Source: Nemertoderma westbladi (Eukaryota > Animalia > Xenacoelomorpha). From it: a stretch of 47,991 bases of DNA. This document shows positions 1,921 through 42,500 of the stretch, piece by piece; position 1 is the stretch's first letter; every line of letters begins with the position of its first letter. The DNA is taken from the NCBI GenBank assembly GCA_032718475.1, contig JAUCBJ010000464.1, positions 1 through 47,991 of the forward strand, read 5' to 3'. Below the pieces are notes generated by a model. The model had not been told where the DNA came from and made no database searches. It was given only the letters and a program-made list of their open reading frames with translations. The position numbers were made by a program, and so were the translations under genes.

Positions 1921-1932
1921 TATATCCGTTAT
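1921..1932 (-). promoter_or_regulatory. Non-tRNA primer-binding-site position of copy A (ATAACGGATATA), complementary to LTR-internal 2657-2668
   Basis: Plus strand TATATCCGTTAT abuts the LTR edge at 1933 and is the exact reverse complement of ATAACGGATATA at 2657-2668; no TGG tRNA-type PBS here. Confidence 0.65.
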
Positions 1933-3130
1933 TGTTCGCACTTTCAGACCTTTGACAGTTTAACCCACCAAATTAGGATGTCTTCTAGATAATAAATCAC
2001 TTTTAGCCTCTGACAAGTATTTGATTCACTACACTAGTCGAAACCAATCGGTGCGCGATCATTCACCCGCTGGATATACCCGGGAGATTGGGTTCGACGG
2101 CTTAATCGTATTGCTATGTAAGCCTAATGTATTATTCGACTGACAGTATTATATAATCTCTGACAATATTATTCACCTTCGGGGAATATTAACAGTTCCT
2201 TTAGGACGTGGCGCTCTATCTATAAAAACAGAGTTATGACTTAAACTACTCACAACGATATGGCCTAATTACAATTCACATATATGGCGCATTCTTTAGG
2301 AAATGCTTCGTTATCAGTCTCACTCATACACGATGCTGCACAATACTGCACACTGATCTGCCGATCTTCACTGATTTTAGTCACATATAAAAGGAACACG
2401 GACCGAATCATGTAGGGTCTATCAAATAACATTAGATTCACTTCAACCCACTTTAACATAAGTCACAATCGTTATATGTAACCTTTCCCTCTTACCTTCG
2501 GTATATCAAGAATATTGGGTTTTCGGGGTTATTTATCGTTATTCCAAATATAATAATTCATCAACCATATTATGAAGAACCGACAGTAAATAGCAGTATA
2601 ACAGTTTGGTTTGAGACAATCAGTCAGTTTAGTTTGGTATGTTATGATTAGTTATGATAACGGATATATGTCCTTATAATTAAGCCTACTAGTGTAAGGC
2701 TAAAACAGAAAAGCACAAAATATTCCCAAGCCGCTCTCTCCTGGCTCAGGACAGAATGTAAACACTGCACATAATGCATTGAGTGATTTCTAGGAAATCT
2801 CTGTACAAGAGCCATAAAAATGCTCTGATTGGCTGACTGAACTGAGAGACGCCGTAGAACAAAGAAAATCAACACGTATGAATATCAGCTGTTAACCGTA
2901 GTCATAGTAACTACTGTTCAAGAGTAGCTATCACCTTTTGCGTCACGGAATTGCCATAGAATCATCAACTATGCCTTTCACAGTACACATACGGAGGAAA
3001 TAGCTCTTAGATCCTCTAAAAACACCGATACAGCAATAATACGGCCTCTTACACCTATTAAATCAACTACAGAGTATTTTAATGTAAAAGATAATAAAAA
3101 TAACGGGGCAATTCAGCAAAGGCTTTTACA
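1933..3130 (-). repeat. 5' LTR of Bel/Pao copy A (diverged subfamily)
   Basis: Starts TGTTCGCACTTTCAGACCTTTGACAG and ends GGCTTTTACA; homologous along its length to 3435-4581 but with many substitutions and indels. Confidence 0.88.
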
Positions 3131-3434
3131 AATCCCCCTTAGAACCAGAGTATCCAACAGTTTAATGCCAAAGCATGATGGGATGGAGTAGTAATGCTGC
3201 AATGGCGACTACATTATACCGTATGCCATACCGGTACCTGACTATACTGGCGTGACAGTACAGCAGTAGGAATACAATTCTCCATGGTTACAAGATAACA
3301 AAGAGTAATTTATTTTAGAGGATGTAGAATAGTCATTTAATTAAAAAATGTAATTACCACAAGCACAACTTAGTTATATTCTAGAATGTAACAACTCTGG
3401 AATGTAGAGCAGAATGCGATTTTAGCTTTATTTG

Positions 3435-4581
3435 TGTTTGCGCTTTTAAGACCTTTGACAGTTTAACCTGCCAAATTAGGATGTCTTTTAGATGATATAT
3501 AGTCTTTAGCCTATGACGAGTATTTGATACACTACATTAGCCGAAGCCAGTCTATGCGCAATCATTCACCCGCTGGATATACCCGGGAGACTGAATTCGG
3601 AAGCTTAATGATTGATGGTGTAAGCCTACTGTATTGTTCGACTGATCGTAATATATAATGTCTGACAAATATTATTCACTTTCGGGAAATATTAACAGTT
3701 CCTTTAGGACGTGGCGCTCTAATTATGTAAACAGAGTTATGACTTAAACCAGACGCAATGAGATGGCTATAGATTCACGTATATGGCGCATTCTTTAGGA
3801 GATGCTTTGTTATCAGTTACAATCATACACAATGCTGCACACCAATCTGCCGACCTTCACTAATTTTAGTCACATACAAAGAGAATAACAGACAATACAT
3901 GTAGGGCCTATAAAATAGCATTAGATTCACTTCAAACCACTTAACATAGGTCGCAATCGTTTATCTGTAACCGGTCTCTCTAACCTTTAGTATATCAAGA
4001 AGGTTGGGTGTCTGACTATTGATCAGTATTCCAAATATAATCTTCCATCAACAAATATAATGAATAACCGACAGCAAAAGCAGTAATGTTAAGTAAGATA
4101 TGCATGATATGTTTAGTAAGCATTGATAAAGTAACTCGTTAACTCGATAACAGATATACGTTCTATAATTAAGCCTACTAATGTAAGACTAAAGACTGAA
4201 ACACGGAGGTGCCAAAAGCCGGTGTTCTTAGGCTCTGGGCAAAAACATAACACTGAATTCCTGAGTTTCTGTATCCACCTCCAACACAGAGACAAAAAAC
4301 GCTCTGATTGGTCGACCGAACAACGAGAGAACAAAGAAACAAAGAAATGTCGACGTGGCAATATCAGCTGTTAGCCGTCGTCATGGTAGCGACACTGTTT
4401 TCAAGAGTATCGAGCTTATTGCGTCCCGAAATTGCGGATTATGTCCTCTAAAGTACAAATACAGAAGAAATATCCTCTAAAACATCAGTACAGTAAGGAC
4501 ACGGCCTTTTTATGCCCAGTAAACCAACTACAGAGTACTTTACGGGGAAAATAACCGGCTAATTACGCAAAAGCTTTTACA
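3435..4581 (-). repeat. 3' LTR of Bel/Pao copy B (1147 bp)
   Basis: Direct repeat of 14737-15902, differing by a few substitutions, one 10-bp indel and one roughly 9-bp indel. Confidence 0.95.
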
Positions 4582-4589
4582 CCGCTCCC
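4582..4589 (-). promoter_or_regulatory. Short polypurine tract (GGGAGCGG) upstream of the 3' LTR
   Basis: Minus strand reads GGGAGCGG|TGTAAAAGC at the LTR boundary. Confidence 0.6.
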
Positions 4590-4607
4590 AGAAAATGGGA
4601 TTTAAGT

Positions 4608-6166
4608 CTATAAAATATAACAAATCACAGTTTCTAAAATATAAAGATACTCTAAACAGTTAGTCTTTCTTACACAGATGGCGTTTACGCAGTTTTTTGA
4701 GGCTAGCAAGAGTCCTTTTCTCTTTGGGGCGAGCCACTTTACTAGGAGGGCTATATATCCTGGGTGAAGGATGCAATATGATTGCATCAGAAGGTGTAGG
4801 ATTATGGTCGGGGTATCCGCCGTTTCGATATGCTTCTCCTCGAGCTGATTTTCCTCCGCTCGTAGCTGGATACGTTCATCCAAAAACTCTCGCAGAGAAT
4901 GGGGTTGTCTAAGTTCGATATCTTCTTAGAGATTCTGGATTTCACAATCGAACTGAGATAAAGACAATTCGTTTATCGCTTGGACTTGCTGTTACAACTT
5001 ACGTTTATCTGAACAAACGCAGGTTTCCTTTCTGATCTTTGTAGAATAGCGTTTAACTCGTTTGGTACAACGTTCTCCGCCACTTTGGTGACAGGTTATA
5101 TCGTGTTAAGCCGGGACGATGGTAAGGGTTAAACGGCGATATTAAATGTCCGCGTCCCAATCCGGCTAGGTAGGATGGGCTAATATCTAGGAAGCCCACA
5201 ACTGGGGTGCCACCGACTAATTGTTCAGGTAACACTAGATCTTTGAGCAGTGAGTACAGCTCGGGAGGATCCGTCATACTAATAGGATCAAGAGTCTGAG
5301 GTCTCACTAGGGAATGAGGAGCTCTGATCGAGTATTCCGAAACTCTGATCATTGGTTTATTTAAGGATCGTCTGAGTCGAACGAGCGTAGGTGATACATT
5401 GAACAAGTTTCGCTCGAAACTCCCGTAAGTATAGCGAGTAAAACCGTGTTTAAAGCAACGTCTCCGCGGATGTTTATGTCTTTCTGTTTGTTGGTGGGGT
5501 CTTGGGCATTCATCGCAATAATACCAAAAACGCACGTCGTGTAGGGGAAACGCGAGTGATCTTTCTCCAGCTTACAATATTCCTCCATCCGGTACAACAG
5601 GTAGCGATCGATCGGCGGTAAGATACACCATAGTGGAATAGAGCCGTTTGAGTTCCACCATGCGGTCATGAGGTATACCTTGAGGATATCGAGTTTCTAG
5701 ATTCTGTTGACTGGTAATATCGAGATAGGTTTCTCTCAAGAATTCCAGGTATTTGGTGGAGTCGCTGCGTTTATCCGGCTCTTCGACATCTGCACTTTCG
5801 AGTCGGTTTCGAATAGAATTTTCGTGTTCGAGTCTCAATTTATCGTTCCGCTTCCGCTGGGTATGATATTTAAATAAACCATTTCCCGTTGGTGTCTATA
5901 TCGTTCGTATCGTGTAGGTCGATAGGATGACCAGTAGTTAAGAAGTCCATATACATACCATTACGATGCGTATAGCGAGCGGTGAATTTTCTACAGTCTA
6001 ACCCACGCGCAAGTTGCTCCCGGGACATTGGCGGTTAGATATAACGACCATCGTCCTCCGTAGTAGTTGGACCAGCGTCGCCGCGTATCAAGCTATCAAC
6101 AAACGCTTGTAAAGGTAGAGTATATCTTTCCCTGATACCAAGATCATCTTCTATCAACTCAATCAT
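4608..6166 (-). pseudogene. Frameshifted extra ORF of unknown family in the env position of the Bel/Pao element
   Basis: Chain of overlapping minus-strand ORFs (5572-5838, 5361-5669, 5053-5535, 4608-4883) plus an upstream frame from ATG 6166, in a segment more GC/CpG-rich than its flanks; no motif recognised. Confidence 0.5.
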
Positions 6167-6994
6167 ATCTGCTATATAAGTTTATCCATATTATAATGAG
6201 TTTATATTTAGGCGAGCGGGCGTCGCTGCCTACCCCTCTCTGCCCCCGGACAGTGCGAGATCCTCAGCGCTGGTGTACTTTCGCCGATGTGCCTATCGCC
6301 AACGTCGTAGCTGCACAACGACTACAACAACCAGCACGAGCCACTCCACCGTCCGTCCCAAAGGCTTAGATATACTTCAGGTTCTTACTGGAGAGTTAGG
6401 GTTACTTTCACAATTGCGACTCGCTACTGTAAACACACCTTAGTAGTAACATTCACCTACAAACGCACAAATTCCACGTAACAGTCACAAATGGTACACA
6501 TTCTATCACACATTCGGGTCATTTGTCCGTTAGTCAAGTGCCTTCCAGAATGTCACGTTGTTATTATGTATCCTTGGATACTAGCGGTGTGCTATTTATT
6601 CCGTATGCTATTCAATACGCAAGCCCTTTATTGTTCTTTTAACTCACTTCTAATTCTAGCGTGGTTGTTGCCATGGTGACATTATGGAAAGCTAGTGGTA
6701 GAATTAGGGTAATTCTCATGCATACAGATCTGGGATGCTATTTAATAGTAAGTCTTTAATGGTCAATATCATCTTTATATATGATTTTATGAATTTTATC
6801 GGCTATTGACTCTATATTGGAGATTCTCACACTCTAACACACTTAATAGGATGAATCTCCGCTCCCGTGATCTATTAATTAATGGAATTTTGGGAATGTT
6901 ATAAATTGCATAAAATTGCAATTTATTAAATTCATTAAAGTATGAATTTAAATTTATTCCCTGAAATTTTATTATTTGATAGTTAAATTGACAC

Positions 6995-7275
6995 AATTTG
7001 ATTCCAGAGCAGGTCTGGGGACATAGGATCCTTAATTCTATGAAAATTGTCTTTTAAGAGTATCGGTAAGTGCTACGATATCTTAATCGACTAGAATGGT
7101 TAAAGGATCTGAATTTTACAGATTTTGATTTATAGATTTGTAAATATTAAATAATTAATATTTGAGATGGGCACCAATTTATTCCAGAACTTGTCTGGGG
7201 ACGTTAACCACTGATTCTAGAATTTTGTCTTTCAAGTATATCGGTGGGTGCCGCGATATCTTAATCGACTAGAAT
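6995..7275. repeat. Diverged duplication of about 100 bp in the internal 3' region
   Basis: ATTCCAGA...GTCTGGGGAC...CGATATCTTAATCGACTAGAAT at about 6995-7097 and 7176-7275. Confidence 0.7.
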
Positions 7276-7811
7276 TGCAGATGGTCAAAGGGTTTAACAG
7301 ATTTATTTTGCGTTTTACGCTACTGTTAAAGGGACATCACGCTACTATATGTATTATTTAATATACGGTATGAGAGCAATATCGCACGAAGCAATGTCAG
7401 TGTGAAGAGGCAAGTCGTTTCCAAGGTCTACCCAGAGCTTGGTTTAGCCGAGACACGAGGATCTGAACTTTGCATTCCTAATACTCTGCTTACCAATAAT
7501 ACTTAAATATAGTAGGAGCTTTATTGTACTTTAATAAGTACGGATATTTCATCTTACTGTAGTCACGTATTTATAATATGATACGGACAGTAAGGAAAGA
7601 GAAAAAGAATTATTTATCGCCGTCGCACTAAATATAATATATAAGTAATTAAGTAATAAACACTAATATATTGCACTAATCTACTAAATAATCACTAAAT
7701 AACATTCTACTAAATAAAATTAAAGAAAACGATTATAATAAAATTACATAATAATACATACATAATATAAAATAATAAAATAATGTAGTCACACACCCAC
7801 TCCGTATGTTG

Positions 7812-8255
7812 TTACGTTATGGAGTCCCTAGATATTTGTTGGATTAGGGAGGTGGTCGTGGGAAGAGTATCTTGCCTTCCATAGTTTCCGGACAGTTTTC
7901 GGTCTCTTTCCAGTAAACATAAACGACCAGCTGGGCGATTGAGTGGTTGTGTTACTTTCTCCGCTCCCTTGGCCTGTCTAATCTTCGCCGGGTTAAGATG
8001 GGGAGGCCATTCATCTTCTTTACTTAGGAAGTCGGGTTCACCTAACCAGTCTGGAGTATCTGTAAGTTCTTGAGGAGTTGCTCCTCTGGAGGCGATGTCG
8101 GCTAGATTGATCGTCTCGGGGCAATGTCTCCATTGATCTACATTGGAGTTGATGTCGTCATTATCTGAGGAGTATGGTGTTCCCTCAGTTGGGTCGTCAA
8201 CTTCACTGCTCTCCACTTCCCGTTCACTTAATTGATATACCTGTTCTTTTGGTAA
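7812..8255 (-). pseudogene. pol: pol remnant: end of Bel/Pao RNase H fused to extreme integrase C-terminus
   Basis: WRHCPETINLADIASRG...WLGEPDFL...WP fits the Pao RNase H end (W.H....NPAD..SRG...W..GP.FL); LNRPAGRLCLLE fits the RP..KLCLL end of Pao integrase; same frame as gag, separated by one TGA. Confidence 0.75.
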
Positions 8256-11200
8256 TCATTCCATAAGAGTTCTACGAGAAGGGCCAGTAAAGTACCAACC
8301 TACTCTAGTTCTTCCCGCATAAACTTGTAGAGGTTGCGGTTGAGCAGGCCGTTTCTCCAATGTCTCGAGCGCTTCATGCGCATTTGGACCGATGAGTATT
8401 TGGACTCCAGGGTAATCGGTGTTGAATCTAGGTATTTCAAACTGCTGGGTGAAATCGTCCTCATCCCAGTTATAAGGTTCCACTTGGCTGGTCGCGAAGT
8501 TCTTTATCGCTAACATTTTTACTGACCTTATGCTGTGTTCTCCTAGTTCATCCTGGGGGGTGGACAACGCACCTACATAATAATCTGCGATTACTGTAGA
8601 TTTCCAAACCTGCATAATTCCTGACATGTTTAGCTTAGTTCGGAACTTGGGTTGTCCAGCAAAGATGTCTTCGGCTAGTTCTTTGTCGATGAATGTTCCT
8701 GTACTACCGGAGTCAAGGAGGGCGTTCACTACATAACTCCTTTTAGGTCCGTGGACCCTTACCTGTACTACAGGAAATTCTCGGATTCCTACATTGGAAG
8801 GTGGTGCTTTCCAAGATGGTTGTCTGTCAGAAGTAGTTAGGGGGGGCTCGCTGTCGGTGTCTTTTTCATACGTAAGTGCTCGATACACTGCGGTATTTGT
8901 TAGGTAACAGGATTCGTTTTCGTCGGAGAATTCGTCCGTATAGAATCCTTCCATCTCAGAATATTGGTCAGTGTCGTTCACATCACTGAATTGGACATAT
9001 AGTTCGGACTCACTTACCTGACTCGGGCTGTTTCGTTCGAATTCCGTGTGCAACAAGATATGATGTTTTGCGCCGCACTTTGCACACCTTACGTCGGAGT
9101 AACAGGTTCGCCGTTGGTGTCCTCGTCTGAGGCAATTATAACACAACCGCTTATCCCACATGATTTCACGTCTGTCCTTTAGTGATTTCCCCAGGAATTC
9201 ATCACACGCACTTAAACGGTGGGGCCCATCGCACAGCACACATTTGGGCTTGATGTTACTTACTTTAACATGTGCTGTGTGGTGCACGTTCGTTCTTTCC
9301 TCGGGCTTTCTCACCTGAATTCTCTTGGGAGACGTAGGAGGAGTTTTTCTTACCTGTTCTCTCCTGTCATTGGTTCGAGACTTGAATTTAGTTACCTGGT
9401 CTTTAGGCGTTTTATTGACATAATAAGATCTTTCAGTGTCTTTCCCGCTATCCTCTCCTTGAGAAGTCTGGCTTTCGCCGTCGTCTGTATAACACACTGG
9501 TGTTACCCTTCTCCTAGAAACGGGTTTCTCACTTACCTTGTTTTCCAGTGTCTTCTCTCTGGACTGCCTTAGGAGCTGTAATTTCACTTCTCCATCTAAG
9601 AATGACATGAGATCAGCCATGGTAGGGTCTCGTCGTTGTTGTTCCATCATATATAACACTTTCTTGTCCCAGCGTGTACCTACTCCACCCTTGGGCAAAG
9701 TAGATGCTAAGGCTCCTACAACCATAGAATTCTGGTATTCATGAGACTTACCTAGCCAATCTAATTGTCTACAGATCTCCTGAATCTCATCGGAAAACTC
9801 TATAATCCCGCTGCTAAGAAACTTTCGGGGCGCCATTAATTTTGCATACAAATACCTAGCTATGTTATTCCTATTACCATACCTGATGTTTAGTGTATCC
9901 CAAACTTGTCTTAATCCGTCTGGATGTCCAATAAACTTTAGCGCCATTAACTTGGGAGATCCTTCCAAGCACTCGATGAGGAATCTAAGTTTCTCTCCAT
10001 TAGATAGCACAGAGTTCTGTATGTTATCTTTGTAATATTCATTAAAAGGTAACCATTTCATCTCATCTCCATTGAACTTGACGATCTCTCCCACCTTTAC
10101 CGCTTGCCGGGCTTCGGTTCTAGCCATTTGACGCGTAAAACTTTCTTGGGCCATCGTGTTATTTAATATCGAGTTATCGGTATATAAATTTCTCGGATTA
10201 TGATCCGGTCTATAGGGAATATCATTATCAACAGGTCTATAATTACTCTTAATAGGGTTCACTATAGGAGTTTCTACTTCGCTAGCAGTATAGATGCGTG
10301 TAGGCTCCACACCTTGCGCATGAGATACTTCAGACCTAACAGGTTGACACATTGTTACAGGGGGTGGTGGTATACCCTTTTGTGTATTTACTAATTTATC
10401 GCGTTCTAGCACGATACTTTGCTGCACTTCTTGCAACTCTAGCCTACTTTCCCTTACTGTGCCCTTGAATTGCTGAACGGTCTCCTGCATCTGTCCGAGC
10501 AGGAGATCCATCCCCCGTCGTCTCTCATCCACCCATTCGACCGCCGAAGCGGGATTCGCCAACGTTGTAGCGGGCGGACGAGGGACAACGGGCGACAAAT
10601 CTTGAATATTTCGCTCGGAGTCCAGGGCATGAACTGTCTCATGGGCTGTTCTGCTGGGCACAGGTAGCTTGGTACTGTGCAAAGGGAATTTAGAGGTAGG
10701 TTCAGGGAGTACAGGTGTCTCTATCACCGAAGGGGTGATTTCAAGAACAGGCCTAATTATTTCAGGCTCATCTACTATAGTAGGGAGTCTTTCTATTGTA
10801 ATTATTTGGTCTGTGGGTTCTGTACTACCTAAGTTGGTGTTATTTAGTTGCCTTCTAACAGCTGGAGGCAAATCAGGCAATTTCTGACGGTGGGATGTTC
10901 TTTTACGTCTGCTTAGACGAGATCTATTTCCTTTGCCTTCAGTATCGGTGGTATCGCCTTCCTCAGATGATGTATATCCCTGTCTTTTGGGGGTAGATCG
11001 ATTCATCATCTGCATATTACTAGCTGTTAACTGTTTATTTATGCAGTCTTGATTCTCCTGAATATTTTCCAGTTCTAATTGGGCGATCTCTTCAGCCGCT
11101 ACCCGTTCTGCTTCTGCCGCTGCCATTGCCGCTTTTCTTTCCATTTCGGCTGCTTTTCTTTTCGCTTCTGCCTCTGCCGCTGCTGCTTTTCTTTCCATTT

Positions 11201-12548
11201 CGGCTGCTTTACTTTTCGCTTCTGCCTCTGCCGCTGCTGCTTTTCTTTCCATTTCGGCTGCTTTACTTTTCGCTTCTGCCTCTGCCGCTGCTGCTTTTCT
11301 TTCCATTTCGGCTGCTTTACTTTCCTCTTCGGCTGCTTTCCTTTCCGCTTCGGCAGTTGCTACTGCTGCTTTCTTTCTGTCTTCTATACGTTTTTTCTTT
11401 ACTTGTTCTTCTTGGACTCGTGTGATGCGGAGTTGTTCATCAAATTTAGCCTGGTTCGCAGCCCTCATTTCCACATCGATGGCATCCAACACACGCTGAG
11501 TTCCTTCACTATTAGGGCTAAGTCCATCTAACCTTCTCCTCAACTCCTCATCACCTAAAAAACGTTGATAGTCTGACAGATAGATGTCAATGGCATCCCT
11601 CTTATGCGGCTTCTCTGCCGTCGCTTCACTTTCCACTTGGGAAAAAGTAGCGTCTGTTGATTCTCCATGGGTTGAGCGCTCCTCCAGCTGAGCTTTCCAC
11701 TGAGCTGTTCCTTGAACCTGGAGATTCACCCGTTGAAACCAAGTCTTTACGGCAACTTGCAACGACGTGTCTTGTCTTCTTTTAGAAGCCTCTTCAAAGG
11801 CTGATAATATTAGCCTGATTCGCAGAATTCTTTCTCTAACTTGATAAAGCAGTTGTCCCTGCTCTTGAGGTCCTTGAGGTTGTTGGAACAGTTGTTCTTT
11901 TACTCGCTCCATAGAGCTGAAAAATCCCTGTGCGTATCCGGCTGCGGACCTCTTCCACACAGCTGGATCGATGGTTTCCTTGGCTACTCCCATCCGGTGT
12001 ATGTCTTCCCAGGCAGCTTCTGATAAATCAAACGGGAGTCCGGGTCCGGGGAAGTTCCATTGCGACTCAACAATAGACTTCAGTTCTTCCTTTGTGTATC
12101 CCGCATAACTATCTTTAGTTGATCGCTGACTTCTCGCCCAATCGATCTGGTGTTCTCCCACCGCGATCAATATCCTAGTGAGTACGGCTGCAGGCAGGAT
12201 GAGAAGGGGATCCGAATAAACCGCATCCGTCATCTTTGCTCTGCGCTCGGGTGTCAGCTCTACAGTATTTTCACTACTGGAGCTGTCGGGCCGCTGAGAA
12301 ATAAGTTCTTGGCTCGCGGGTTGTTGCTGTTCCGCTGCTTCTTGGTCCCGCTTGACCTGAGCTCGAGTGCCTATGATAGACCTATGGTGTTGGACCAGCC
12401 TAGGTTCTGATATTACTACTGGAGGGATGACCTTCCTCACAGTGGGAGGTGAACTGAACTTAGGACTAGACGGTTCTACACCTCTATCTGAGTCGCAGAT
12501 AGTTACATCTAATAAACTGTCTGACAGGTTCTGCTTAGTATCAGACAT
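8256..12548 (-). CDS. gag: Bel/Pao Gag-protease polyprotein (about 1430 aa from first ATG, MSDTKQ)
   Basis: DUF1759-like capsid region (FNGDEMKWLPF...EKLRFL...TLNIRYG); three Bel/Pao zinc knuckles (CVLCDGPH, CYNCLRRGH, CAKCGAKHHILLH); aspartic protease ALLDSGS; uninterrupted ORF. Confidence 0.93.
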   Translation of the reverse strand: MSDTKQNLSDSLLDVTICDSDRGVEPSSPKFSSPPTVRKVIPPVVISEPRLVQHHRSIIGTRAQVKRDQEAAEQQQPASQELISQRPDSSSSENTVELTPERRAKMTDAVYSDPLLILPAAVLTRILIAVGEHQIDWARSQRSTKDSYAGYTKEELKSIVESQWNFPGPGLPFDLSEAAWEDIHRMGVAKETIDPAVWKRSAAGYAQGFFSSMERVKEQLFQQPQGPQEQGQLLYQVRERILRIRLILSAFEEASKRRQDTSLQVAVKTWFQRVNLQVQGTAQWKAQLEERSTHGESTDATFSQVESEATAEKPHKRDAIDIYLSDYQRFLGDEELRRRLDGLSPNSEGTQRVLDAIDVEMRAANQAKFDEQLRITRVQEEQVKKKRIEDRKKAAVATAEAERKAAEEESKAAEMERKAAAAEAEAKSKAAEMERKAAAAEAEAKSKAAEMERKAAAAEAEAKRKAAEMERKAAMAAAEAERVAAEEIAQLELENIQENQDCINKQLTASNMQMMNRSTPKRQGYTSSEEGDTTDTEGKGNRSRLSRRKRTSHRQKLPDLPPAVRRQLNNTNLGSTEPTDQIITIERLPTIVDEPEIIRPVLEITPSVIETPVLPEPTSKFPLHSTKLPVPSRTAHETVHALDSERNIQDLSPVVPRPPATTLANPASAVEWVDERRRGMDLLLGQMQETVQQFKGTVRESRLELQEVQQSIVLERDKLVNTQKGIPPPPVTMCQPVRSEVSHAQGVEPTRIYTASEVETPIVNPIKSNYRPVDNDIPYRPDHNPRNLYTDNSILNNTMAQESFTRQMARTEARQAVKVGEIVKFNGDEMKWLPFNEYYKDNIQNSVLSNGEKLRFLIECLEGSPKLMALKFIGHPDGLRQVWDTLNIRYGNRNNIARYLYAKLMAPRKFLSSGIIEFSDEIQEICRQLDWLGKSHEYQNSMVVGALASTLPKGGVGTRWDKKVLYMMEQQRRDPTMADLMSFLDGEVKLQLLRQSREKTLENKVSEKPVSRRRVTPVCYTDDGESQTSQGEDSGKDTERSYYVNKTPKDQVTKFKSRTNDRREQVRKTPPTSPKRIQVRKPEERTNVHHTAHVKVSNIKPKCVLCDGPHRLSACDEFLGKSLKDRREIMWDKRLCYNCLRRGHQRRTCYSDVRCAKCGAKHHILLHTEFERNSPSQVSESELYVQFSDVNDTDQYSEMEGFYTDEFSDENESCYLTNTAVYRALTYEKDTDSEPPLTTSDRQPSWKAPPSNVGIREFPVVQVRVHGPKRSYVVNALLDSGSTGTFIDKELAEDIFAGQPKFRTKLNMSGIMQVWKSTVIADYYVGALSTPQDELGEHSIRSVKMLAIKNFATSQVEPYNWDEDDFTQQFEIPRFNTDYPGVQILIGPNAHEALETLEKRPAQPQPLQVYAGRTRVGWYFTGPSRRTLME
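11110..11350 (-). repeat. Coding 54-bp tandem repeat (KAAEMERKAAAAEAEAKS, about 4 copies) in Gag
   Basis: Seen directly in both DNA and translation. Confidence 0.9.
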
Positions 12549-13887
12549 ATTTGTGTGCACAGTTGAATGCCTACTGTTATATTATAGCCTAAGCAAGACT
12601 AGTAATTCAGTATTAACTGCTAGCCTAGTAATTAATTACCGATACTGCTACTCAGTGTAGCGTGATATATATATAATATTAGAATACCGGTATGCTTATA
12701 GTATATATAAGTATTATTAGTAACTAGAATTAATTACAGAATACCGATATGATTTCAGCCTAAGTTTATATATATAATAGGCCTATCTTGAATACCGGTA
12801 TACAGCTTACACTTATGATGTGTATATATAAGTATAATTACAGACTAGAATTAATTACAGAATACCGGTATAATTTCAACCTATATTTATAAATATAATA
12901 GGCCTATCGTAAATACCGGTATACCAATTATTTTAGAATAATTGAATTTCTGAATTTTAAGGGTTACTTGGTTACTTTAACTTACTTTATTGCCGTTATT
13001 TAAGCAGTAGTCCAACTGATATTGAGACCTAATTGTTATATGGCAGGCCTACTATTTATAAATCGTTTGAGTTGATTTATAATATATATATACCCGTTTA
13101 ATGGGTTTTGTCAATGTTTGAAATAAATGTTATTATTTCTGGGGGAGTCACTACACATAAGCTGTCCGCTCTCAGTGGAGTGCTACTTGTTAGACACTAA
13201 AACAAATAATTCTAATTTACCTAAGTTACTTATACTACAAATTACGTACAATTCGGGTTGAGATTACAATCTCTAAATAAACACAAAAATTTAATTACAA
13301 ATACACAAATACGAATTTTTTAGGGTAATTTTACAAGAAGTCTACTAACCAGCCTAACAAAGGGTTAGAATATCTGGTTATTACAACGGACAGGTTACTA
13401 CGGTATTTGAAAATAATAAGTAGTAGTAAATATATTGCGCTGTCCAGATAGGAAAATACCACCGTCTGACGACCTATAGCCGTATCGCTATAGGTACTAC
13501 GTTATGTATCACGGAGTGTTCCTACCTAGAGATTAATTTCCGCGGTCTACCAGAACCAACGTGCCTATTAACCACTTTACAACACAAATATACTGCCTAC
13601 ACACTAATCACCTTCGGAAAGTACTGTACACTAAACCCTAAATTAGGTACAAGTACTTGTATAACAAATAATTAGTAGTTAAAAATACTTGAACAGCTAA
13701 AAGAACCACGGTATCTGCCGGAGTGACCAAAGCACAAAATCTCCAGTCTTTACCTACGCCGAGCAGCCCTGATGTAGTACCGGGGTTAGTTTAACTATAA
13801 CGGTATGCATAACAAGCACAATTACTGTAGGAATAAACTTGGGGATATGAATGTTGCGAATAATCGCATAAACTCTGAATAATAAAT

Positions 13888-14455
13888 ATTACGCTACGCG
13901 TACAAACCACTCAAACAAAATGCAGACCAAATACTGACCGACTACTATCAAGCCTAAACAAACTACGGTATATGCAGACTCCGAAATGATTAGTTAGTAT
14001 GCGTTCTAACCCAGTAGTACGACTTATTCTTTCACAGGGGGTTTACCTCACAGCACTTGAAGCCCCTACTTTCCTAACTTAGCACTTTATCGGACAGATG
14101 CTCTACACACACCGAAATTTCCTCAAACCCAACAACAGCCAGACAACTATCCAGCCTACAAATTATCTAAATAAAATTATACGCTACCCGTACAGACTAC
14201 ACAAACAAAGTACAGACCAAACGCTGGCGGACTCCTATCAAGCCTAAATAAACCACAGGACATGCAGACTCTGAAATGGTTAAGTAGTATGCGTTCTAAC
14301 CCAGTAGTACGACTTATTCTTTAGATGGGGGTTTACCTTACAGCTATGGCTGCCCCTACTTCCTAACCGTTCTTTATCTGACATACACTCTACATGCACT
14401 GCAATCCGTTCAGACCTAATCAACAGTTAGCCAACAGTCAAGCCTACAAATTATC
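13888..14455. repeat. Tandem duplication (about 285 bp x2) in the Bel/Pao leader, copy B
   Basis: Homologous to 1092-1655. Confidence 0.8.
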
Positions 14456-14725
14456 TGTACAATCTGAGCAGGCTTACACGCCTTCTGCTCAATACTGGCC
14501 TACAAATAAATAAAACTGACAGAAATAAGTAAGCTCCAAAAGAAACAAGGGGTGTACAGTCCCTAATCTCTTAAACAGCCTACCGGTATACAATACCACA
14601 ATCGAATAATACTGCTGTACCTGTACTACTGTAGGTACCGGTCCGGATGATCAGGCAGTCAGGCCTACTGGTTACCGGTCGACCGGTACTTTCGACTAGA
14701 TTGCTTACACCGCAATCCAGAAGCA

Positions 14726-14736
14726 ATATCTGTTAT
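14726..14736 (-). promoter_or_regulatory. Non-tRNA primer-binding-site position of copy B (ATAACAGATAT), complementary to LTR-internal 15459-15469
   Basis: Plus strand ATATCTGTTAT abuts the LTR edge at 14737 and is the exact reverse complement of ATAACAGATAT at 15459-15469 (4147-4157 in the 3' LTR). Confidence 0.65.
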
Positions 14737-15902
14737 TGTTTGCGCTTTTAAGACCTTTGACAGTTTAACCTGCCAAATTGGGATGTCTTTTAGATGATAT
14801 ATAGTCTTTAGCCTATGACGAGTATTTGATACACTACATTAGCCGAAGCCAGTCTATGCGCAATCATTCACCCGCTGGATATACCCGGGAGACTGAATTC
14901 GGAAGCTTAATGATTGATGGTGTAAGCCTACTGTATTATTCGACTGATCGTAATATATAATCTCTGACAAATATTATTCACTTTCGGGAAATATTAACAG
15001 TTCCTTTAGGAAGTGGCGCTCTAATTATGTAAACAGAGTTATGACTTAAACCAGACGCAATGAGATGGCTATAGATTCACGTATATGGCGCATTCTTTAG
15101 GAGATGCTTTGTTATCAGTTACAATCATACACAATGCTGCACAATGCTGCACACCAATCTGCCGACCTTCACTAATTTTAGTCACATACAAAGAGAATAA
15201 CAGACAATACATGTAGGGCCTATAAAATAGCATTAGATTCACTTCAAACCACTTAACATAGGTCGCAATCGTTTATCTGTAACCGGTCTCTCTAACCTTT
15301 AGTATATCAAGAAGGTTGGGTGTCTGACTATTGATCAGTATTCCAAATATAATCTTCCATCAACAAATATAATGAATAACCGACAGCAAAAGCAGTAATG
15401 TTAAGTAAGATATGCATGATATGTTTAGTAAGCATTGATAAAGTAACTCGTTAACTCGATAACAGATATACGTTCTATAATTAAGCCTACTAATGTAAGA
15501 CTAAAGACTGAAACACGGAGGTGCCAAAAGCCGGTGTTCTTAGGCTCTGGGCAAAAACATAACACTGAATTCCTGAGTTTCTGTATCCACCTCCAACACA
15601 GAGACAAAAAACGCTCTGATTGGTCGACCGAACAACGAGAGAACAAAGAAACAAAGAAATGTCGACGTGGCAATATCAGCTGTTAGCCGTCGTCATGGTA
15701 GCGACACTGTTTTCAAGAGTATCGAGCTTATTGCGTCCCGAAATTGCGGATTATGTCCTCTAAAGTACAAATACAGAAGAAATGGCTTTTATGTCCTCTA
15801 AAACATCAGTACAGTAAGGACACGGCCTTTTTATGCCCAGTAAACCAACTACAGAGTACTTTACGGGGAAAATAACCGGCTAATTACGCAAAAGCTTTTA
15901 CA
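14737..15902 (-). repeat. 5' LTR of Bel/Pao copy B (1166 bp)
   Basis: TG...CA ends, followed by TSD ATTTG; direct repeat of 3435-4581. Confidence 0.95.
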
Positions 15903-17049
15903 ATTTGCTTCACCTCAATAAACTCTCTTTTATTCTTGCGCTCCCTCAATTTCTTGTCTATCAGTCAAAATACTTGATTTAATAAACTTAATATTATTAT
16001 AATAAACGTAATTATCGTTCTGCCTGTCTACGTCTGCCTATACTGTATATAGAGTATGCGCTTTCGAATGGTAAATATTATGAATCTACCTTACCTTACC
16101 ATACAGCCATAGCAAATGGTTGTTATGATAGGTGACTTGCAAAAAGAATGCACCTACTTCCACTATATCGACGGGTTTCCTGAGTAATTACTAAATTATT
16201 TTTAATTGTTTAATTACCGGGACCGGTAAAGGCGGTAAGCTACGAATTGAATTGAATACGTCGGTAGATAATCTACTGACGTATTCATTTAATATAAAAC
16301 TAAGCTACGGAATTCTGGAATTCGAATTCCCACTTGAACCACTCATTCTTCAACTTGTAGGTTTAGGCAACAAAACTTCAGAGATTATTTTACACGTATC
16401 GGCGTCACTTCCCCAAACAGCCAAAGAAAGTAATAAAGTCAGTGTAAAAAGTCAGTGTAATTTGTTAATGACATCTCTTTCAGTCTGTACTGCCAATAAG
16501 AGTGCAGTATTTAGAATGCTGGAATGGAACTAGAGACGGGCCTAGTGGCCCGTGAAGCAAGTCGTAGGAGACAGTACGAGTCAAGTAAAAGCTTTTTGTT
16601 CTTTCTGATTGGGCGTAGTCCCGGTGGTGCACGAGAGATTTTCTAGACAACTTCAAACTATATACTTATTATGTTGTAATCATCTAATGAATTATAAAAG
16701 CTGTTGTGATTATAGAAGATAGAGAGCGGTTAGAGAAATGGTTATTTTATTATATCGGATAGAGCAGTCGGAGTCTCAGAGAGGAGTCAAAGTGTCAATT
16801 GATTAATAATACTAACAGCAGTTGTCATGAATTCAATACAATCGTGCCAAAGAAGTAATGTGGCAAATTCGTTCTTATTTTTGTAAATAAAACAAGTTGA
16901 GATGTTTCAATGTAAACCGCGATTAACAATTTACAGTGCTGTTAAATGTAATATTTTTAACGATATTTTTAATTATTACAACAATTTATATTATTGTTTT
17001 AACAGAGTACATTTCAGATAGAGTACTGGGATAGCGTGACCGAGTAAAC

Positions 17050-17651: not shown

Positions 17652-19344
17652 ACCCTTACTAAACTTGGCAAGTAATATGCTTTTCTGCAGTTTGGGCCTA
17701 TTCAATATAGCATTCATTCACTAGGCCCTCTCTATCATTTCTTTTTCATGAGCACACCATCTGGTGTTTCTATTATTGAGTCTATGGCAATTTTCGTGTT
17801 ATGGGGCTATTTTTCGAAATAAAGCAAGTCGAGATGTTTCAATTTAAACCGCGATTTCACAAGTACCCATAGAAATCTATTTTCATGGTTCATGCAAAAT
17901 TTCATCAAAATCGTTTAAAGCCGTTTTTGCTCTAGGTCAGTAGATGCATAGGTAGTAGCCTGTAGCCAGTAGCTTTTTTTTCTTACAGTATAATCAAGTC
18001 TTACGACTTGCTAATTATCTGTGATTGTTGTTATCTGTCCTGGTGTACCGCACAGCCGTACTCGAACCTACTTCCATATATTGCACATATAGGCATATTG
18101 TGTATTGTAGTATTGACCTGCTGACAATCAGTTGGTATCTGCCATTATTATACTGTATTACAGTATTATACTGTACAGTGCACATATAATTATTATTATT
18201 ATTATAATTAATTAAATTAATAATATTACATCATGTTATTTTGATTCATGTTTGCCAGTTTGCATACACAACAGTACGAGTATACAGTATAGGGCAGTAG
18301 GGGACTGTCGAGGCGTTTATGGGAGGCTAACCTGAAGATGCCTAGTAAGCCGTTATGTAGTTCTAATGAGTGTTATCAAAGCCTCGGTATACCTGCCGCA
18401 TATAGCAGGAACACTCACAAAAGTGTGGGGGTATATATATATTATCTAATATATACATCTTAACGAGATCTAGAATTAGTTACTGTAAGTATAAGGCCTC
18501 AGCACTTACAAACTGCTTCAAAGGGGTACGATAGTTACGTGTAAACCGTTCCGTTATATTGTGTTGTTGGCTAGTAAATGTACGTATGACTTACACATAT
18601 CACAGGTAGGACGCTACTTTGCCTAGTGCGTGGTAAGCGCACGATTTACTCGAATCACTTGCATCGGTGGTAAATAATAGTTACTAGTTGGGAATAATAT
18701 AACAATACTGTGGACTCATACATTCGCATTAAATGAACCGAGTCTTATTACTGACAGGGCGCACTTACGTTTATCGTGTGGAAATCAAGTTGGTTTGATC
18801 TTTAGTCCAATATATTCATCAACAAGTAGTGCAAATATAATAGATTGCAAATGATTAGTTGTTAATGCAAGCAATTAGTTGTTAATACAAGTGATAGGCT
18901 ATAAAATCGATGTAAATTACCTTAAGATGTTATTAAGGTTAAGCCCTGCCTTAGCGAGGCTAACAGCAGTTATATATGAATACACAATGTTCGGTAAAAA
19001 TAGAACAGCCAATAAGACGCAAGAATACCCGCTATATAGAATATTCGGTAGCTACCAATGAGAGTTCAGCAACACTACAACCGTTGTTAGGCAACAATAT
19101 AAACAACCTTATGGGCTATTCAATACGTTCGAAGTACAAATATTATATGCACTGAAACCGAATAATAACCCGATGAAAATATAAGATTTCTGTATACAGT
19201 TAGCATTGGCAGCAAAAGGGACGATCGGAGATATTTACACTACCGGAAGAGGTACGTCATCTCATCCTCGATAGGACGAATATATTATACGGATCGGATA
19301 ATACGAAGGACATCAACGAATCCATGAGTGGATACATAGGCTGA

Positions 19345-22300
19345 TAGGTGCAACGACTATTCCACAGTAATAGTTGGTGATTTTAACTGGCCTGACAACA
19401 GTTTTCCTAACTGTAATGTATATAGTGATTTTAATTATTTTTTATTGCGTTGCGACCTAACTCAATTTGTCAATTTTCCAACAAGGTACCAAAACACTTT
19501 AGACTTATTGTTATGTAATGATGACGACTTTGTATCTAATACTATGAGTTTACCTAATTTTGATACCAGCGACCATTCATCGTTTAGTTTCGTTGTCAAT
19601 GAAACTAGTGTCAGTGCAGAACCAGACACTGAAGTTTATTGCTTCCGGAAAATGAATGTGAATGGTATCAAAACCTATTTAGAAGAAGTTGATTGGTCTG
19701 CTCTTTTTAATAATTGTGATGATGTTCAGTCATGTCTCGATATTTTTAATTCTGAAATATCTTCTGCTTTTGATACCTTTGTGCCAAAATACTTTCGTAA
19801 TACCAAACCGCGTAGGTACCCACTGCATATTAGAAAAACCCAAGCCAGGAAACGTCGTTATTGGAAACGGCGACATTCTGGACCTGATGGAATGAAAAGT
19901 TCCGGCAAGAAAACGCCACATGCTCAGAACACTTGCATAACTTTCGCCGGAAATAAGAGCATAATATCTTACATAGCGGTGACCGGAATGCATTTTATAA
20001 ACATGTTTATAAGAAACGTAACACTTTTAATTCTGTTGCTCCACTGAAATATAACGGCGTACTCTAATTTATTCTGAAAATGATAAATGTAAATGTTTAT
20101 TGGAGCAGTATTCTTCTGTAGGAGTTTCCGACAATACTACTACTACTAGGATCGGCATGCTGCATTGCAGCTGCATTTTTAAGAATGCTGTGCCGGCTTG
20201 TCAACAAAATTGCACCGCCACAACTCCCTATCACCCATGACATTTGCTAGATCATCCGCATCTTCAAGGCCAGTTTCCTTTAAGATTCGTCTCAAGAAAG
20301 TCATGGGCTGTCCACCATGCTTATTCACTCCATGAGGCTGCCAAAGTACAAGATTATGCACTGGCTGGTCCTCACGGCGAAAGCAATGTCCTGCAAAGCG
20401 GAGGCGATTTTGTTCTAGTGTCAAGCTTGGGGGAACCAATGAGACACCTCCAATGTTATATACAGTAGTGTCTGGTTGGAGATGTGTGCATTGTACTTGA
20501 CACAATGAACCCGGCGTAGCATTCTTGTGAATGTGCCATCCAGAGATTTGGTGTCCTCAGCAGTTAGAGCCCAGCAAGGACTCCCGTAGAGGAGTACTGG
20601 AACTACTGCTGCTCTAAATAATCGGACCTTAACTTTCCGATTAATTCTCGGTGACTTCCAAATCCTGGAAAGCCTATTCAAGGCTGCCCATGCCTTTCCC
20701 TTACGTATTCGAAGCGTATACGTACCATTGTTTCCGACAATGGTTTTTGTCCATCTCTAGTTTGTCCATCACTGATTGCACATTTTCTAATATTAAATTT
20801 AACACAAAAGGTTTTGAAGGCAATGTGTAAATTACAACTTAAATATAGCCACTGTCTTAATGGTGTTCCTGTAGCTGTGCTAATAACGAACTTGCTATGC
20901 CACTCGCACACATTTTTAATTTATCTGTTACGACTGGTCAGGTACCTTCAATGTGGAAATGTGCTGACGTAATACCTTGCTATATGAAAGGAGACCATTC
21001 ACTGGGTGAAAACTATAGACCTATATCACTTACTTCGTCAGTGTGTAGATTATTCGAACGTTTGTTAGTATCAGAAGTTATTGATTATCTGTGCAATAAT
21101 AAACTACTTTCCCCAGTTCAATACGGTTTTCTTAGTAAACGTAGTGCTGTTTGTTTCACAGTTGCTTGATTGTACTAGTAACTGGTCACGTGCAATTAAC
21201 GACCGGTTATTTACAGATATCGTTTATATAGATTACGCGAAAGCGTTTGATACTGTTGGTACTCATAAATTATTGTCTAAACTACAATGTTTTGGTATTA
21301 GCGGAAATGTTTTGTTATGGTTAACTAATTTCCTTACAAATAGGCAGCAACGAGTAAAATTAGGAAATAGCTATTCATCCAACATGGCAGATAAATCTGG
21401 TGTACCACAAGGTTCGTGTATCGGGCCACTTATGTTTATTTTATACATAAATGATTTACCTGATATATTTTCTTCATAATACATTTAAAACCCGTTTATA
21501 TGCTGATGACACTAAACTTTTTTCCAGTTTCGATTCACCTGGTGGTCGATATAGATTACAGGCAGATTTAGACGCCTTTTCTGATTGGTCAGATGTATGG
21601 CAACTTAATGTGTCCAAGCATAAATGTAAAGTTCTTACCGTAGGAACTTCTAATGTACCAGATGCAGTGTATTCAATCAATAACTACATATGCACTTGAA
21701 AATGTGTCATCTTTCCGTGATTTAGGAGTAGAAGTTGATAGTAAGTTATATTTTGCAAATCACATTGATTTAATAACTAAAAAGTGCTATAAAGTAATTA
21801 ATTGTTTATTTAGGTGTTTTTCTACTAACAACTGTGGAGCTATTTTATTTGCCTATAAAGTGTACGCAAGGCCACGTTTAGAATATGGTAGTGCAATATG
21901 GAACCCTTTTTGTAATTCAAAATCTTTTCTTGGCCTAACAGACAAGCTTGAGTCGGTCCAAAGATATTATACCCGTAGGTTATTCCACCGGTGCTATTTC
22001 GATACTGATGCTTGTTACCTAAGAAGGCTAACAATTTTGAAATTACAATCACTAGAACTTAGACGAGTGCATATTGACCTAATTACTGTTTTTAAAATAC
22101 TCAATGGTTTTATTTCACTGCAGTAGAATCTAATAATTTATTTGTAAATGTAAATTCATCTTCAATAAGACTGAGGGGGCACCCTTACAAATTGCAGCAG
22201 GGACATTGGAGAACTGTTGCGGTGCAGAACTCATTTACAAATCGTGTTGTGACTGTTTGGAACAATCTACCTTACGTTGCAGTAACTGCCCCCTCAGTTG

Positions 22301-23311: not shown

Positions 23312-23655
23312 CTTATATTTTCTGCTGTGTAGAGTTTCCCCCTATATTTTCTGTTGTGTAGATTTTTCCCCAATATTTTCTGTTGTGTAGCGTTTCCCCC
23401 TACAGTATATAATCTGATGCATAGCATTCCCCATATCTCTATATTTTCTGCTATGTATTATTTCCCCATATATTTTCTGCTATAGTGTTTCCAGTTTCTC
23501 CACTATATTTTCTGCTATATAGTATTCATTACCCCCTCCCTACATTCTCTGCTGCAGCTGCATAGCATTTCCCCTTATATTGCCCCCCCCCCCCCCCCCC
23601 CCCCAATATCTTCTGCTCTGCTATTTAGCATTTCCCCCTATAATGTCTGCTGTGA
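23312..23655. repeat. Degenerate minisatellite (about 27-30 bp, ATATTTTCTGCTGTGTAG-TTTCCCC) with a poly-C run
   Basis: About ten degenerate units run up to and overlap the cytohesin stop codon. Confidence 0.8.
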
Positions 23656-24825
23656 AGCGCTCTTCTTCCTAATACTCAATATCTCATTCAAGGCATCTCT
23701 GCTAATACTGGCTCGTATACTTTTCATCCATTCCTTCTTTTCCAAACTGTACTGGGCACTCATTCGGTAGGCCGTGTGTTTCCCCGGTACCATCCTCCCA
23801 TCCGAATCAGCCTTACAAGCCTGTATATATCCGTCAGACTGTCCCGAAACACTGTAGATCTCGAAACAGTTGGGTTTCTTGGAGTCTTCTACCTCCTTTA
23901 TGCTAACATTCTTTAATGGTACGATACCTTTTGGCTCTTTATCCTGGATGTTCTCAAAATAATACAGACAATTTTCAGTTAAAATAAACCAACGGCGTCT
24001 CCACGACTTGTAACGACCTCCTTGTTTCCATAGATACCCCTCTTTATCGGGATTAAAGAATGTGTGAGTAAGATCTGATCCATCATCATCTGGGACGGCA
24101 AAGGGCTCCTCACGAATGTTCGCGTAGAGATTGCGTAGTAACTCCTCGGGGAGATCGGAACCGTCGTTAATACCGCGGTTCATAAGGATGAACCGCTCCA
24201 CCGAGGGTTTATCCTTCACATTCGGGTTGTGTAAACTCGTGTTCAGCATAATTATAGCGAAGGAAAGAACGAAACAGGTATCCGTGTTGCTGAACATACT
24301 TGGGTTGCACTCACAGTAACGCAGCGCGAACGTTTCCATCATACGGTCGATCTTCTGAGCTTCTCCCGGAAGTCGGAACGTCCATAGAAACTGACGCAAC
24401 GCGTTGACTAACAGCAGATCCGTAAAGTTATGACGCTCGACGAATTTGTGGAGGACAGGAACGTTCCCCAACTCGCCTAGATATTCCCCTATCATGGTTT
24501 TATTCAATCCGTCTACGTTAAACAAATACTCCGACTTGCTTTCCGGGGTGTCCTCGATAAGATTATTGGCTATCATGTACTCGATTCCTTTGTTGCAATC
24601 GACATTAAACATCCGACGACCAATTGCTAACGATTTTGATCGCGTTGTCGCTTTCGCGTCTAACGGTACCGGCTCTAAGCGGTCCAACTCCTGCGTTATT
24701 GATTGAATTTCGTTCTTAATTTCTTGGATTTCTTTAAGAAGTTCTATTTTCATTTTATGGATGTCGGCCAGTAATTCGCGCGTTTCAGCAGTCAAATCTG
24801 CGCCAAAATTTGAATATTTATCCAT
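23638..24825 (-). CDS. CYTH: Cytohesin family Arf guanine-nucleotide exchange factor (coiled coil-Sec7-PH-polybasic), single exon, 395 aa
   Basis: N-terminal coiled coil; Sec7 [12 protein letters not shown] with catalytic Glu and [16 protein letters not shown]; PH domain [15 protein letters not shown]...[15 protein letters not shown]; basic tail IRKK. First ATG at 24825; the longer ORF call runs into a MITE. Confidence 0.95.
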
Positions 24826-24859
24826 GCTCGGCTGGTCTTGCTTTATGTACACTAGACTT

Positions 24860-25405
24860 CTGCCGTGCAATGTAAAAAGACCGCAAGTCACAAAAAGTCA
24901 TTTCGAGTAAAACGCAAATTACTGTTTTCCTTCCGATTGTTGGTTTAAAATGTCCGTAAATTACTATTTTTTATAACCCTACGCAATTGGGGGTGGGAAA
25001 TTTTTATACGTGATTATTTTTCACTTTTCATTAATATTTTGACTTCAGGGTAATTTTTTCTACTTACGGTGTTTTTTCATTATACAAAACTGTATGTAAA
25101 TACATATTTCAAGACACATATTTCAAAAAAACCGTATGTGCGTTTTCTTATTATCTATGCAATGACAAAACACCGCAAGTCTTGTTGACTTACGGTTTTT
25201 TTTGCATAAATTTAAGTGACTCGTTGTTTTTCCTTTGTAACACTATATATATGTTGTGCCTTACGGCCTTTCTACATTGCATATCTTGAGAACTAGAGTG
25301 TATACGGTGTTCTCGATTTTACCATTAGATAGAGCGCATTTTTTAGACCCAGAAAAGTGAATTTTGGAAAAATGCGACTAACTGTCTTTTTACATTGCAC
25401 GGCAG
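24860..25405. mobile_element. MITE with 22-bp TIRs and 4-bp TSD (possibly Sola-type)
   Basis: TIR CTGCCGTGCAATGTAAAAAGAC (24860-24881) and its reverse complement at 25384-25405; TSD ACTT on both sides. Confidence 0.85.
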
Positions 25406-33671: not shown

Positions 33672-34210
33672 CAGACTGACAGAGAGACCGACAGACAGAC
33701 AGACTAGATTTATGTAAACGTGTAAACTGACATCAGAAATGAAATCAGCAACCCTTAAACCCCCATAGCGAGAATGTTGGTTAGTTAGTATACTTTCTTA
33801 AGTTTTCACAGACTGACTGACAGAAAGACCGACAGCCAGACAGACTAGATTTTTTTTAAACGTGACAACTGACATCTGAAATAAACTTAGCACCCATTAA
33901 AACCCCCATAACAAGAATGTTAGTTAGTTTGTATTCTTTTTTAAGTTTTGACAGACTGACTGACTGACAGAAAGACCGACAAACAGACAGTCTAGATTTA
34001 TATAAACCTGAAAACTGACATCAGAAATGAAATCAGCACCCCTTAAAACCCCCATAGCGAGAATGTTAGTTAATTTGAATTCTCTTTTATGTTTTGACAG
34101 ACTGACTGACAGAATGACCGACAGACAGACAGACTAGATTTATGTAAACGTGAAAACTGACATCAGAAATGTAATCAGCACTCCTTAAAACCCCCATAGT
34201 GAGAATGTTA
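33672..34210. repeat. Tandem array (about 140 bp x4) with (GACA)n/(GACT)n microsatellite, Helentron/DINE-core-like
   Basis: Repeating CAGACTGACAG...CTAGATTTATGTAAACGTG...GAAATCAGCACCCCTTAAAACCCCCATAGCGAGAATGTTAG. Confidence 0.85.
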
Positions 34211-35657: not shown

Positions 35658-35772
35658 CATATAATAAATCTAAATACATTCGTATAATAATAATTAAATG
35701 ACAATCAAATTAGTGATATCGCAACCTCCTCCCCCAGACTCAACTTCATCCCAAATAGTCCTTAATAAGTCT

Positions 35773-36657: not shown

Positions 36658-37032
36658 CTAACACATGTAGCACAAAAGCAGCAAATGACTTTCTAACTAA
36701 CTCTGTAACGTCTTTATGAATATTAACATATTATACTGATATACAAATTACATCGATTATTATAGTTAGGACAGACAGACAGGGTAAGGCGCACAACCAC
36801 GGCCTACATCTGTACATAAAATAGGCTACAGTATGGTAACTACCGGTACCTTCTTACATCCCCCGCGTTACCAAAAGATCGACCCGATCTTAATAAATGA
36901 AAATATCTATTTATCACAGTAAATTAACCAAATTTACAACACAAATTAAATTACTTTCAGTTTCACTCATCTCAAAGTCAAAATAATTGTAATCGTAACA
37001 AACAATTAAAATATATGAAAAATACAGAAGTT

Positions 37033-42485: not shown

Positions 42486-42500
42486 TCGGTGGGACCTCCA
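42486..42500 (-). promoter_or_regulatory. Primer-binding site complementary to the tRNA-Gln 3' end
   Basis: TGGAGGTCCCACCGA directly after the 5' LTR; eukaryotic tRNA-Gln ends ...TCGGTGGGACCT(CCA). Confidence 0.85.

Follow-up and report, generated by a model that had tools for sequence, protein, structure and literature searches.

We report that element B, a Bel/Pao retrotransposon on the minus strand of a contig of Nemertoderma westbladi (JAUCBJ010000464.1, assembly GCA_032718475.1), probably primes its own minus-strand DNA in a Tf1-like manner, with a primer that would lie inside the RNA and be held in place by a tether. The window, i.e., the whole stretch of DNA that was analysed, is 47,991 nt long and also contains copy A, a diverged member of the same family that extends past the left end of the window. 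That the primer is encoded by the element in some form is likely. As far as sequence comparison goes, the signature is real and well supported, and it represents a variant of a known mechanism; what is new here is the covarying tether, the corrected expectation for the transcription start site (TSS) and the controlled survey of public contigs. Bel/Pao is one of the three superfamilies of LTR retrotransposons and, to our knowledge, self-priming has been shown only for the fission-yeast element Tf1.

Element B and its primer-binding position

Element B carries most of the marks of a Bel/Pao element (Table 1): a DUF1759 gag with zinc knuckles followed by an aspartyl protease, TG...CA LTRs, a short target-site duplication (TSD), a polypurine tract and, as a remnant only, the Pao-type RNase H region. 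The gag-protease ORF matches PF03564 (Pfam, E 3e-12), and the homologues found for its protein were all Bel/Pao (5/5), each with PF05380 and PF03564. The RNase H remnant (8189-8004) comprises about 50 aa and, taken alone, had no Pfam match. Because reverse transcriptase (RT) and integrase were not detected, we regard the element as non-autonomous, and because its two LTRs differ by 4 substitutions and 2 indels, its insertion appears to be young. The proteins are of the Bel/Pao type and not those of a Ty3/gypsy chromovirus polyprotein, which excludes membership of Tf1/sushi, and the 18-nt tRNA-Arg or tRNA-Gly primer-binding site (PBS) of the ICTV description is absent. Thousands of short Logan contigs from the DNA runs of two studies cover the family LTR, so the family is evidently abundant in the organism, although the top run may be the one from which the window itself derives; a 30-nt LTR word had no match in metagenome or viral contigs, and a representative search for a close or autonomous partner gave only about 24-49% identity, mostly in the zinc knuckles.

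Table 1. Coordinates of the features of element B and copy A in the window.
Feature	Position	Strand	Remarks
5′ LTR of element B	14737..15902	-	TGT...ACA, 1166 bp
3′ LTR of element B	3435..4581	-	second copy of the partner site at 4157-4147
TSD CAAAT, 5 bp	15903..15907 (left copy); 3430-3434 (right copy)	-	
Purine-rich tract abutting 3′ LTR of element B	4582..4590	-	
Gag-protease ORF	8256..12581	-	1441 aa stop to stop; DUF1759, zinc knuckles, aspartyl protease motif
Pao-type RNase H (Peptidase_A17) region remnant	8004..8189	-	tblastn E about 1e-6, 4 Bel/Pao polyproteins
Primer-binding position of element B	14726..14736	-	directly 3′ of LTR, without TGG
LTR segment complementary to PBS	15459..15469	-	predicted self-primer 3′ end at 15459
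Tether segment upstream of primer site	15489..15509	-	pairs with U5 14843-14835 and 14814-14803, 21 bp in B; A/B covariation
U5 partner of tether	14803..14843	-	two arms around a 20-nt insert
U5 arm of 13-bp U5-leader helix	14933..14945	-	invariant between A and B, no covariation support
Leader arm of U5-leader helix	14600..14612	-	about 125 nt past LTR
Small hairpin 3′ of PBS	14699..14717	-	closing pair G-C in B, T-A in A; read from sequence
CCAAT word, candidate promoter element	15619..15623	-	conserved in A and B
5′ LTR of copy A	1933..3130	-	872/1166 B positions identical
Primer-binding position of copy A	1921..1932	-	
LTR partner site of copy A	2657..2668	-	12 bp
Tether segment of copy A	2688..2705	-	pairs with 2038-2030 and 2009-2001, 18 bp

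Several features of the interior may be recorded here. About 3 kb of internal sequence (4600-7800, minus strand) replaces the RT/integrase region and contains short ORFs, and none of the four ORFs scanned had a Pfam match. The long N-terminal part of gag includes tandem alanine/glutamate/lysine-rich repeats (11110-11377, minus strand). In both copies, the 2.2-kb leader holds two tandem units of about 290 bp (13874-14456 and 1084-1654), and a leader block that is nearly identical in A and B (14465-14525 and 1665-1724, both minus strand) has a pyrimidine-rich acceptor-like word with a donor-like word about 20 nt later; this block may be used in a spliced gag mRNA that skips the PBS.

How might such an element prime its DNA synthesis? 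Read on the minus strand, ATAACAGATAT (14736-14726) comes immediately after the final ...AACA of the 5′ LTR at 14737; this LTR end was set by two things, the 3′ LTR and the 5-bp TSD CAAAT. The initial annotation had noted that TGG is missing here and that these 11 nt are perfectly complementary to a segment of the LTR. Both observations are borne out. The first TGG lies at +18 in B and none occurs in the first 30 nt of A, and the exact 11-bp complement occurs twice, at 15469-15459 (LTR positions 434-444) and, in the 3′ LTR, at 4157-4147. Element B thus has the hallmark of Tf1-type elements, a PBS of about 11 nt that is perfectly complementary to its own LTR and lies at the LTR border. The compensatory change that had been claimed for copy A is likewise present: 1932-1921 pairs with 2668-2657, an A>G change in the PBS being matched by T>C in the LTR, and 12 bp are retained.

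We noted three properties of this pairing. First, in both copies, the site:PBS duplex ends exactly at the LTR/PBS border. Border-anchored matches as good as those observed arose in 69 of 20,000 simulated LTRs for B and in 19 of 20,000 for A, and empirically at 181 of 46,814 window positions, so that the chance in this strict test is 0.1-0.4% per copy (about 0.4% for B); in a looser search, with offsets of 0-4 and spliced forms allowed, the observed score was reached by 2 of 66 leader positions in B and by 1 of 66 in A. Second, each PBS fits only its own LTR, the cross-fits being poor (score 7 for the A-PBS on the B-LTR and 8 for the B-PBS on the A-LTR). Third, A and B agree at 10/11 positions at both the PBS and the LTR site, compared with 26/59 just after the LTR site and 29/46 just after the PBS, and the conserved block stops 1 nt past the LTR site. 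The earlier statement that the neighbouring bases diverge between the copies therefore holds for the 3′ flanks but not 5′ of the LTR site, where 9/11 and 30/40 positions are identical and the upstream flank is thus conserved too.

Two other sources of a primer were considered and rejected. For a splice-junction primer in element B, the best spliced alternatives (10 and 11 bp, with a weak donor) are shorter than the contiguous match. Priming by the tRNA-Asn anticodon arm, suggested by its loop motif, is unlikely, given that copy A alters the would-be invariant U33.

The predicted tether and the 5′ end of the RNA

In a census across about 1460 nt, 61 helices of at least 8 bp proved to keep their register between A and B; the top four by Watson-Crick pairs were the U5-leader helix, the site:PBS helix and the two tether helices. 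The tether helices, with a combined length of 21 bp in B and 18 bp in A, each carry one compensatory and one one-sided tolerated change between A and B, and the 13-bp U5-leader helix (14945-14933 with 14612-14600) spans the PBS. Within the window's family, covariation was read from two copies, A and B, which show three compensatory changes in total, across three helices. A count of helices that reach 9 bp and carry a compensatory change, with thresholds chosen after the list had been viewed, gave three, compared with a mean of 0.17 in 150 block-shuffled alignments, none of which had as many. The loose ends of Logan contigs, read by eye, contain an LTR variant by which the terminal pair of the U5-leader helix would change from G-U to A-U.

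Because the covarying helices tie 15509-15489 to U5, the primer-bearing RNA is likely to begin at least 40 nt upstream of 15469, and the TATA-like word would consequently lie inside the RNA. The initial annotation had placed the TSS at or just upstream of 15469, with the site forming the first 11 nt of the RNA; in view of the covarying tether upstream, this is probably wrong, provided that the 5′ copy is the one used. Lying 10 nt before the site, the TATA-like word could itself point to a TSS downstream of the site. Neither AATAAA nor ATTAAA occurs downstream of the site in A or B.

When nested folding was applied to an RNA starting at the site, the probability of the primer helix was about 1.0 in A and 0.09 in B, and with a start about 30 nt upstream it was 0 in both. 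The tether and primer helices cross each other (a pseudoknot), and nested folding cannot hold the two together; in a two-strand model of B, also unable to hold both, the two competed at 0.43 to 0.56.

Based on these features, we suggest the following course of events. The segment at about 15509-15459, for which we predict a place close to the RNA 5′ terminus, would base-pair both with U5 and with the 11-12 nt after the LTR. The TSS would be situated at about 15510 or farther upstream, the primer would be kept close to the PBS by the 21-bp tether, and a cut just 3′ of 15459 (15459/15458), possibly made by RNase H as in Tf1, would generate the primer. RT, RNase H and integrase would be supplied in trans by an autonomous relative. 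From the primer, DNA synthesis would run through about 720 nt of R-U5 before transferring to the 3′ LTR. The primer would also serve as the template for the PBS of the plus strand; any substitution in the LTR site would in this way pass into the PBS, and the matched change between A and B would be accounted for.

A stretch of the LTR downstream of the primer site (15219-15296, minus strand) contains intron-like words, namely a donor that is stronger in A, a branch-like word and AG. Contigs of a run guessed to be RNA cross it unspliced; were it removed from packaged RNA by splicing, the stretch should no longer be there.

Distant Bel/Pao elements and alternative explanations

We scanned metagenome contigs with five Bel/Pao polyproteins and, from the best 79 of at least 569 confirmed loci, examined 51. 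The 5′ LTR end was definable at seven loci, six by LTR-copy divergence or a TSD and one (L049) by the contig end. None of the seven has TGG within 4 nt of the LTR end, and all seven have a self-match of 10-15 bp to their own LTR when a PBS spacer of 0-4 nt is allowed, a range picked after viewing these loci. The match is contiguous in two of them (L047 and L072), and in the other five (L013, L017, L029, L049 and L054) it exists only across a predicted GT-AG junction, the donors including GTAAGT and the acceptors being rich in pyrimidines. Since the partner is often an exon-exon junction (5/7), it would be internal to the RNA. In the control, 4 of 462 leader positions reached the observed scores, and among cross pairs only 2 of 70 reached 10 bp (mean 6.4).

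At 39 further loci, the choice of the LTR end among the ACA words was a guess; of 533 candidate ends, 25 (in 22 loci) score at least 10, compared with 4 when the positions were shifted by 60 nt as a control. Seventeen of the 39 also contain an ACA word with TGG after it that could not be assigned to a true LTR end, and some of these elements may therefore be tRNA-primed. Combining the seven loci with a definable end and the ten hits judged clearest gave a set of 17 loci with 15 distinct PBS sequences; 16 of the 17 paired stretches begin with GT or AT, as do those in the window, a regularity that points to a primer with a defined 3′ end. A raw count, with no null, places AATAAA or ATTAAA 12-94 nt after the site in nine of the ten relatives with a full LTR, and L017 and L047, also with no null, have a TATA word that precedes the 3′ end of the site by 130-220 nt; from these signals, the site in the relatives probably lies inside R.

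The relatives share 20-27% identity over long gag-protease alignments, and what they show is a superfamily-level pattern, not the pattern of the window's own family. An upstream tether like that in the window was seen in two of ten relatives, so a tether common to all of them is unsupported. Symmetry between the PBS spacer and the spacer at the polypurine tract holds at some loci only, and no Bel/Pao relatives were found in viral contigs. Two loci are unusual in structure: L029 (8908-15933) is a full Bel/Pao element with the TSD GTGAC and identical LTRs ending in TA instead of CA, its PBS and its purine tract each being set off by a 4-nt spacer, and L046 (1-13571) consists of head-to-tail tandem Bel/Pao copies sharing LTRs, which may be an assembly artefact.

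Taken together, the match statistics, the fact that the duplex ends exactly at the border and the self-match in distant Bel/Pao elements (7/7) support the proposal of Bel/Pao self-priming made in the initial annotation, except for its Tf1-style detail that the primer is the first 11 nt of the RNA. We incline, by a small degree, to the broader view that a large part of animal Bel/Pao is tRNA-independent and uses an internal R-region primer ending in A-pyrimidine, which would be splice-built in many families and in others, such as that of element B, contiguous (perhaps after intron loss) and combined with a long U5 tether.

Could the primer be LTR RNA from a source other than the molecule's own 5′ end? 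A short transcript of the LTR alone might act in trans, or the 3′-LTR copy might pair with the 5′ end and circularise the RNA. We consider this possible though unlikely. The site and the tether are present in both LTRs, but cutting of the 3′-LTR copy would strip that molecule of its R and poly(A). The TATA-like word near 15480 would put the segment in U3, whereas the site of the relatives is probably in R, judging from the TATA and AATAAA/ATTAAA words described above. Also in favour of such a primer is that the partner in five of the seven relatives exists only in spliced form while the DNA keeps the intron, for which an unspliced genome and a spliced primer RNA as separate molecules would be the easiest reading.

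It is rather improbable that the pairing is functional without serving as a primer, for example in packaging, dimerisation, a translation switch or protection of the PBS, with priming achieved by other means such as a tRNA fragment. A host-encoded primer should keep the PBS constant, whereas the PBS differs between A and B and has 15 forms among the 17 loci, each matching its own LTR; moreover, the edge of the duplex coincides with the LTR end or lies 2-4 nt away from it, where a primer 3′ end is required. These points have to be set against the priming of Belpaoviridae by tRNA-Arg or tRNA-Gly in the ICTV description (PMC8742986), the existence of half-tRNA primers in Ty1/copia (according to the available part of PMC6317226) and the fact that crossing helices could be alternative states. 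Chance complementarity, to which a long (1166 bp), AT-rich LTR lends itself and which the looser search reproduces at a few leader positions, is hardly credible in view of the strict test, the compensatory change, the helix null (0/150) and the recurrence of the signature in all seven relatives.

Relation to known systems and other features of the window

Self-priming by Tf1 reportedly needs extra RNA structure around U5. Like element B, the elements Tf1/Tf2 (Schizosaccharomyces pombe), Tf1/sushi and Tcn1 lack a tRNA PBS and have about 11 nt after the 5′ LTR that are complementary to the LTR; the Tf1 group, however, belongs to the Ty3/gypsy chromoviruses, a superfamily different from that of element B. 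In Tf1, the first 11 nt of the RNA are made into the primer by an RNase H cut after base 11 (PMC7175516, available part), whereas the primer of element B is probably internal, with at least 40 nt and the 21-bp tether upstream. The loop of about 720 nt in element B and the splice-built partner of its relatives are both unlike Tf1, and cleavage is predicted by analogy.

Self-priming has been described for Tf1/sushi and Tcn1 and predicted for the copia TAR clade (Houba and Osr-1) in the sections available of PMC6317226. The TAR clade resembles element B in that self-priming outside Ty3/gypsy was predicted from sequence alone, and differs in that it belongs to plant Ty1/copia; no Bel/Pao case is named in those sections. 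The dictyostelid Skipper elements also lack TGG, and their primer is unexplained; in the accessible portion of PMC5006619, no complementary LTR region was found for them, whereas element B has one that covaries.

According to the ICTV description, Belpaoviridae are primed by host tRNA-Arg or tRNA-Gly at an 18-nt PBS, in agreement with the initial annotation that Bel/Pao elements are normally tRNA-primed, and their replication, assumed to be tRNA-primed, is poorly understood (PMC8742986). Element B shares with them the DUF1759 gag, zinc knuckles, protease, Pao-type RNase H remnant and purine tract, and its LTR falls within their range of 0.2-1.2 kb (PMC8742986); it differs in having no tRNA PBS and no detected RT or integrase. 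As the initial annotation had supposed, no report of Bel/Pao self-priming was found in the literature searched, mostly open-access main texts; it may yet be recorded in Repbase, GyDB or older papers. None is named in the available parts of PMC5006619, PMC5445492, PMC5443660, PMC3601003, PMC2864245 and PMC8220671, and a term search of PMC3118150 and PMC554778 returned neither PBS nor tRNA. A connection between splice junctions and self-priming was likewise not reported in the literature searched, mostly open-access main texts.

If the proposed reading is true, the self-priming mechanism of Tf1 would extend to a metazoan superfamily, and a different architecture, with an internal, tethered and often splice-made primer, would be added to it. 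It would also bear on whether self-priming or tRNA priming came first, a question raised in PMC3601003 (available part), and may explain why annotation pipelines that match tRNAs only fail to call a PBS in such elements. The model predicts an RNA 5′ end near 15510 or upstream.

The window contains no tRNA gene, and the region 12500-16000 had no Rfam match and thus shows no sign of a known ribozyme. A Ty3/gypsy element (36705-42730, minus strand) contains an ORF of 1791 aa with a PHD finger at its end; the LTRs of this element measure about 155 bp, and the 5′ one is missing the terminal A and has no TGG after it. An uninterrupted cytohesin-like ORF (Sec7 and PH; 23638-24897, minus strand) is possibly a retrocopy. 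The ORF of a non-LTR retrotransposon, with endonuclease and RT, lies at 44319-47621 (minus strand), and a separate endonuclease fragment is found at 19340-20047 (plus strand). Tandem arrays with a period of about 145 bp occupy 33674-34211 and 35772-36659.
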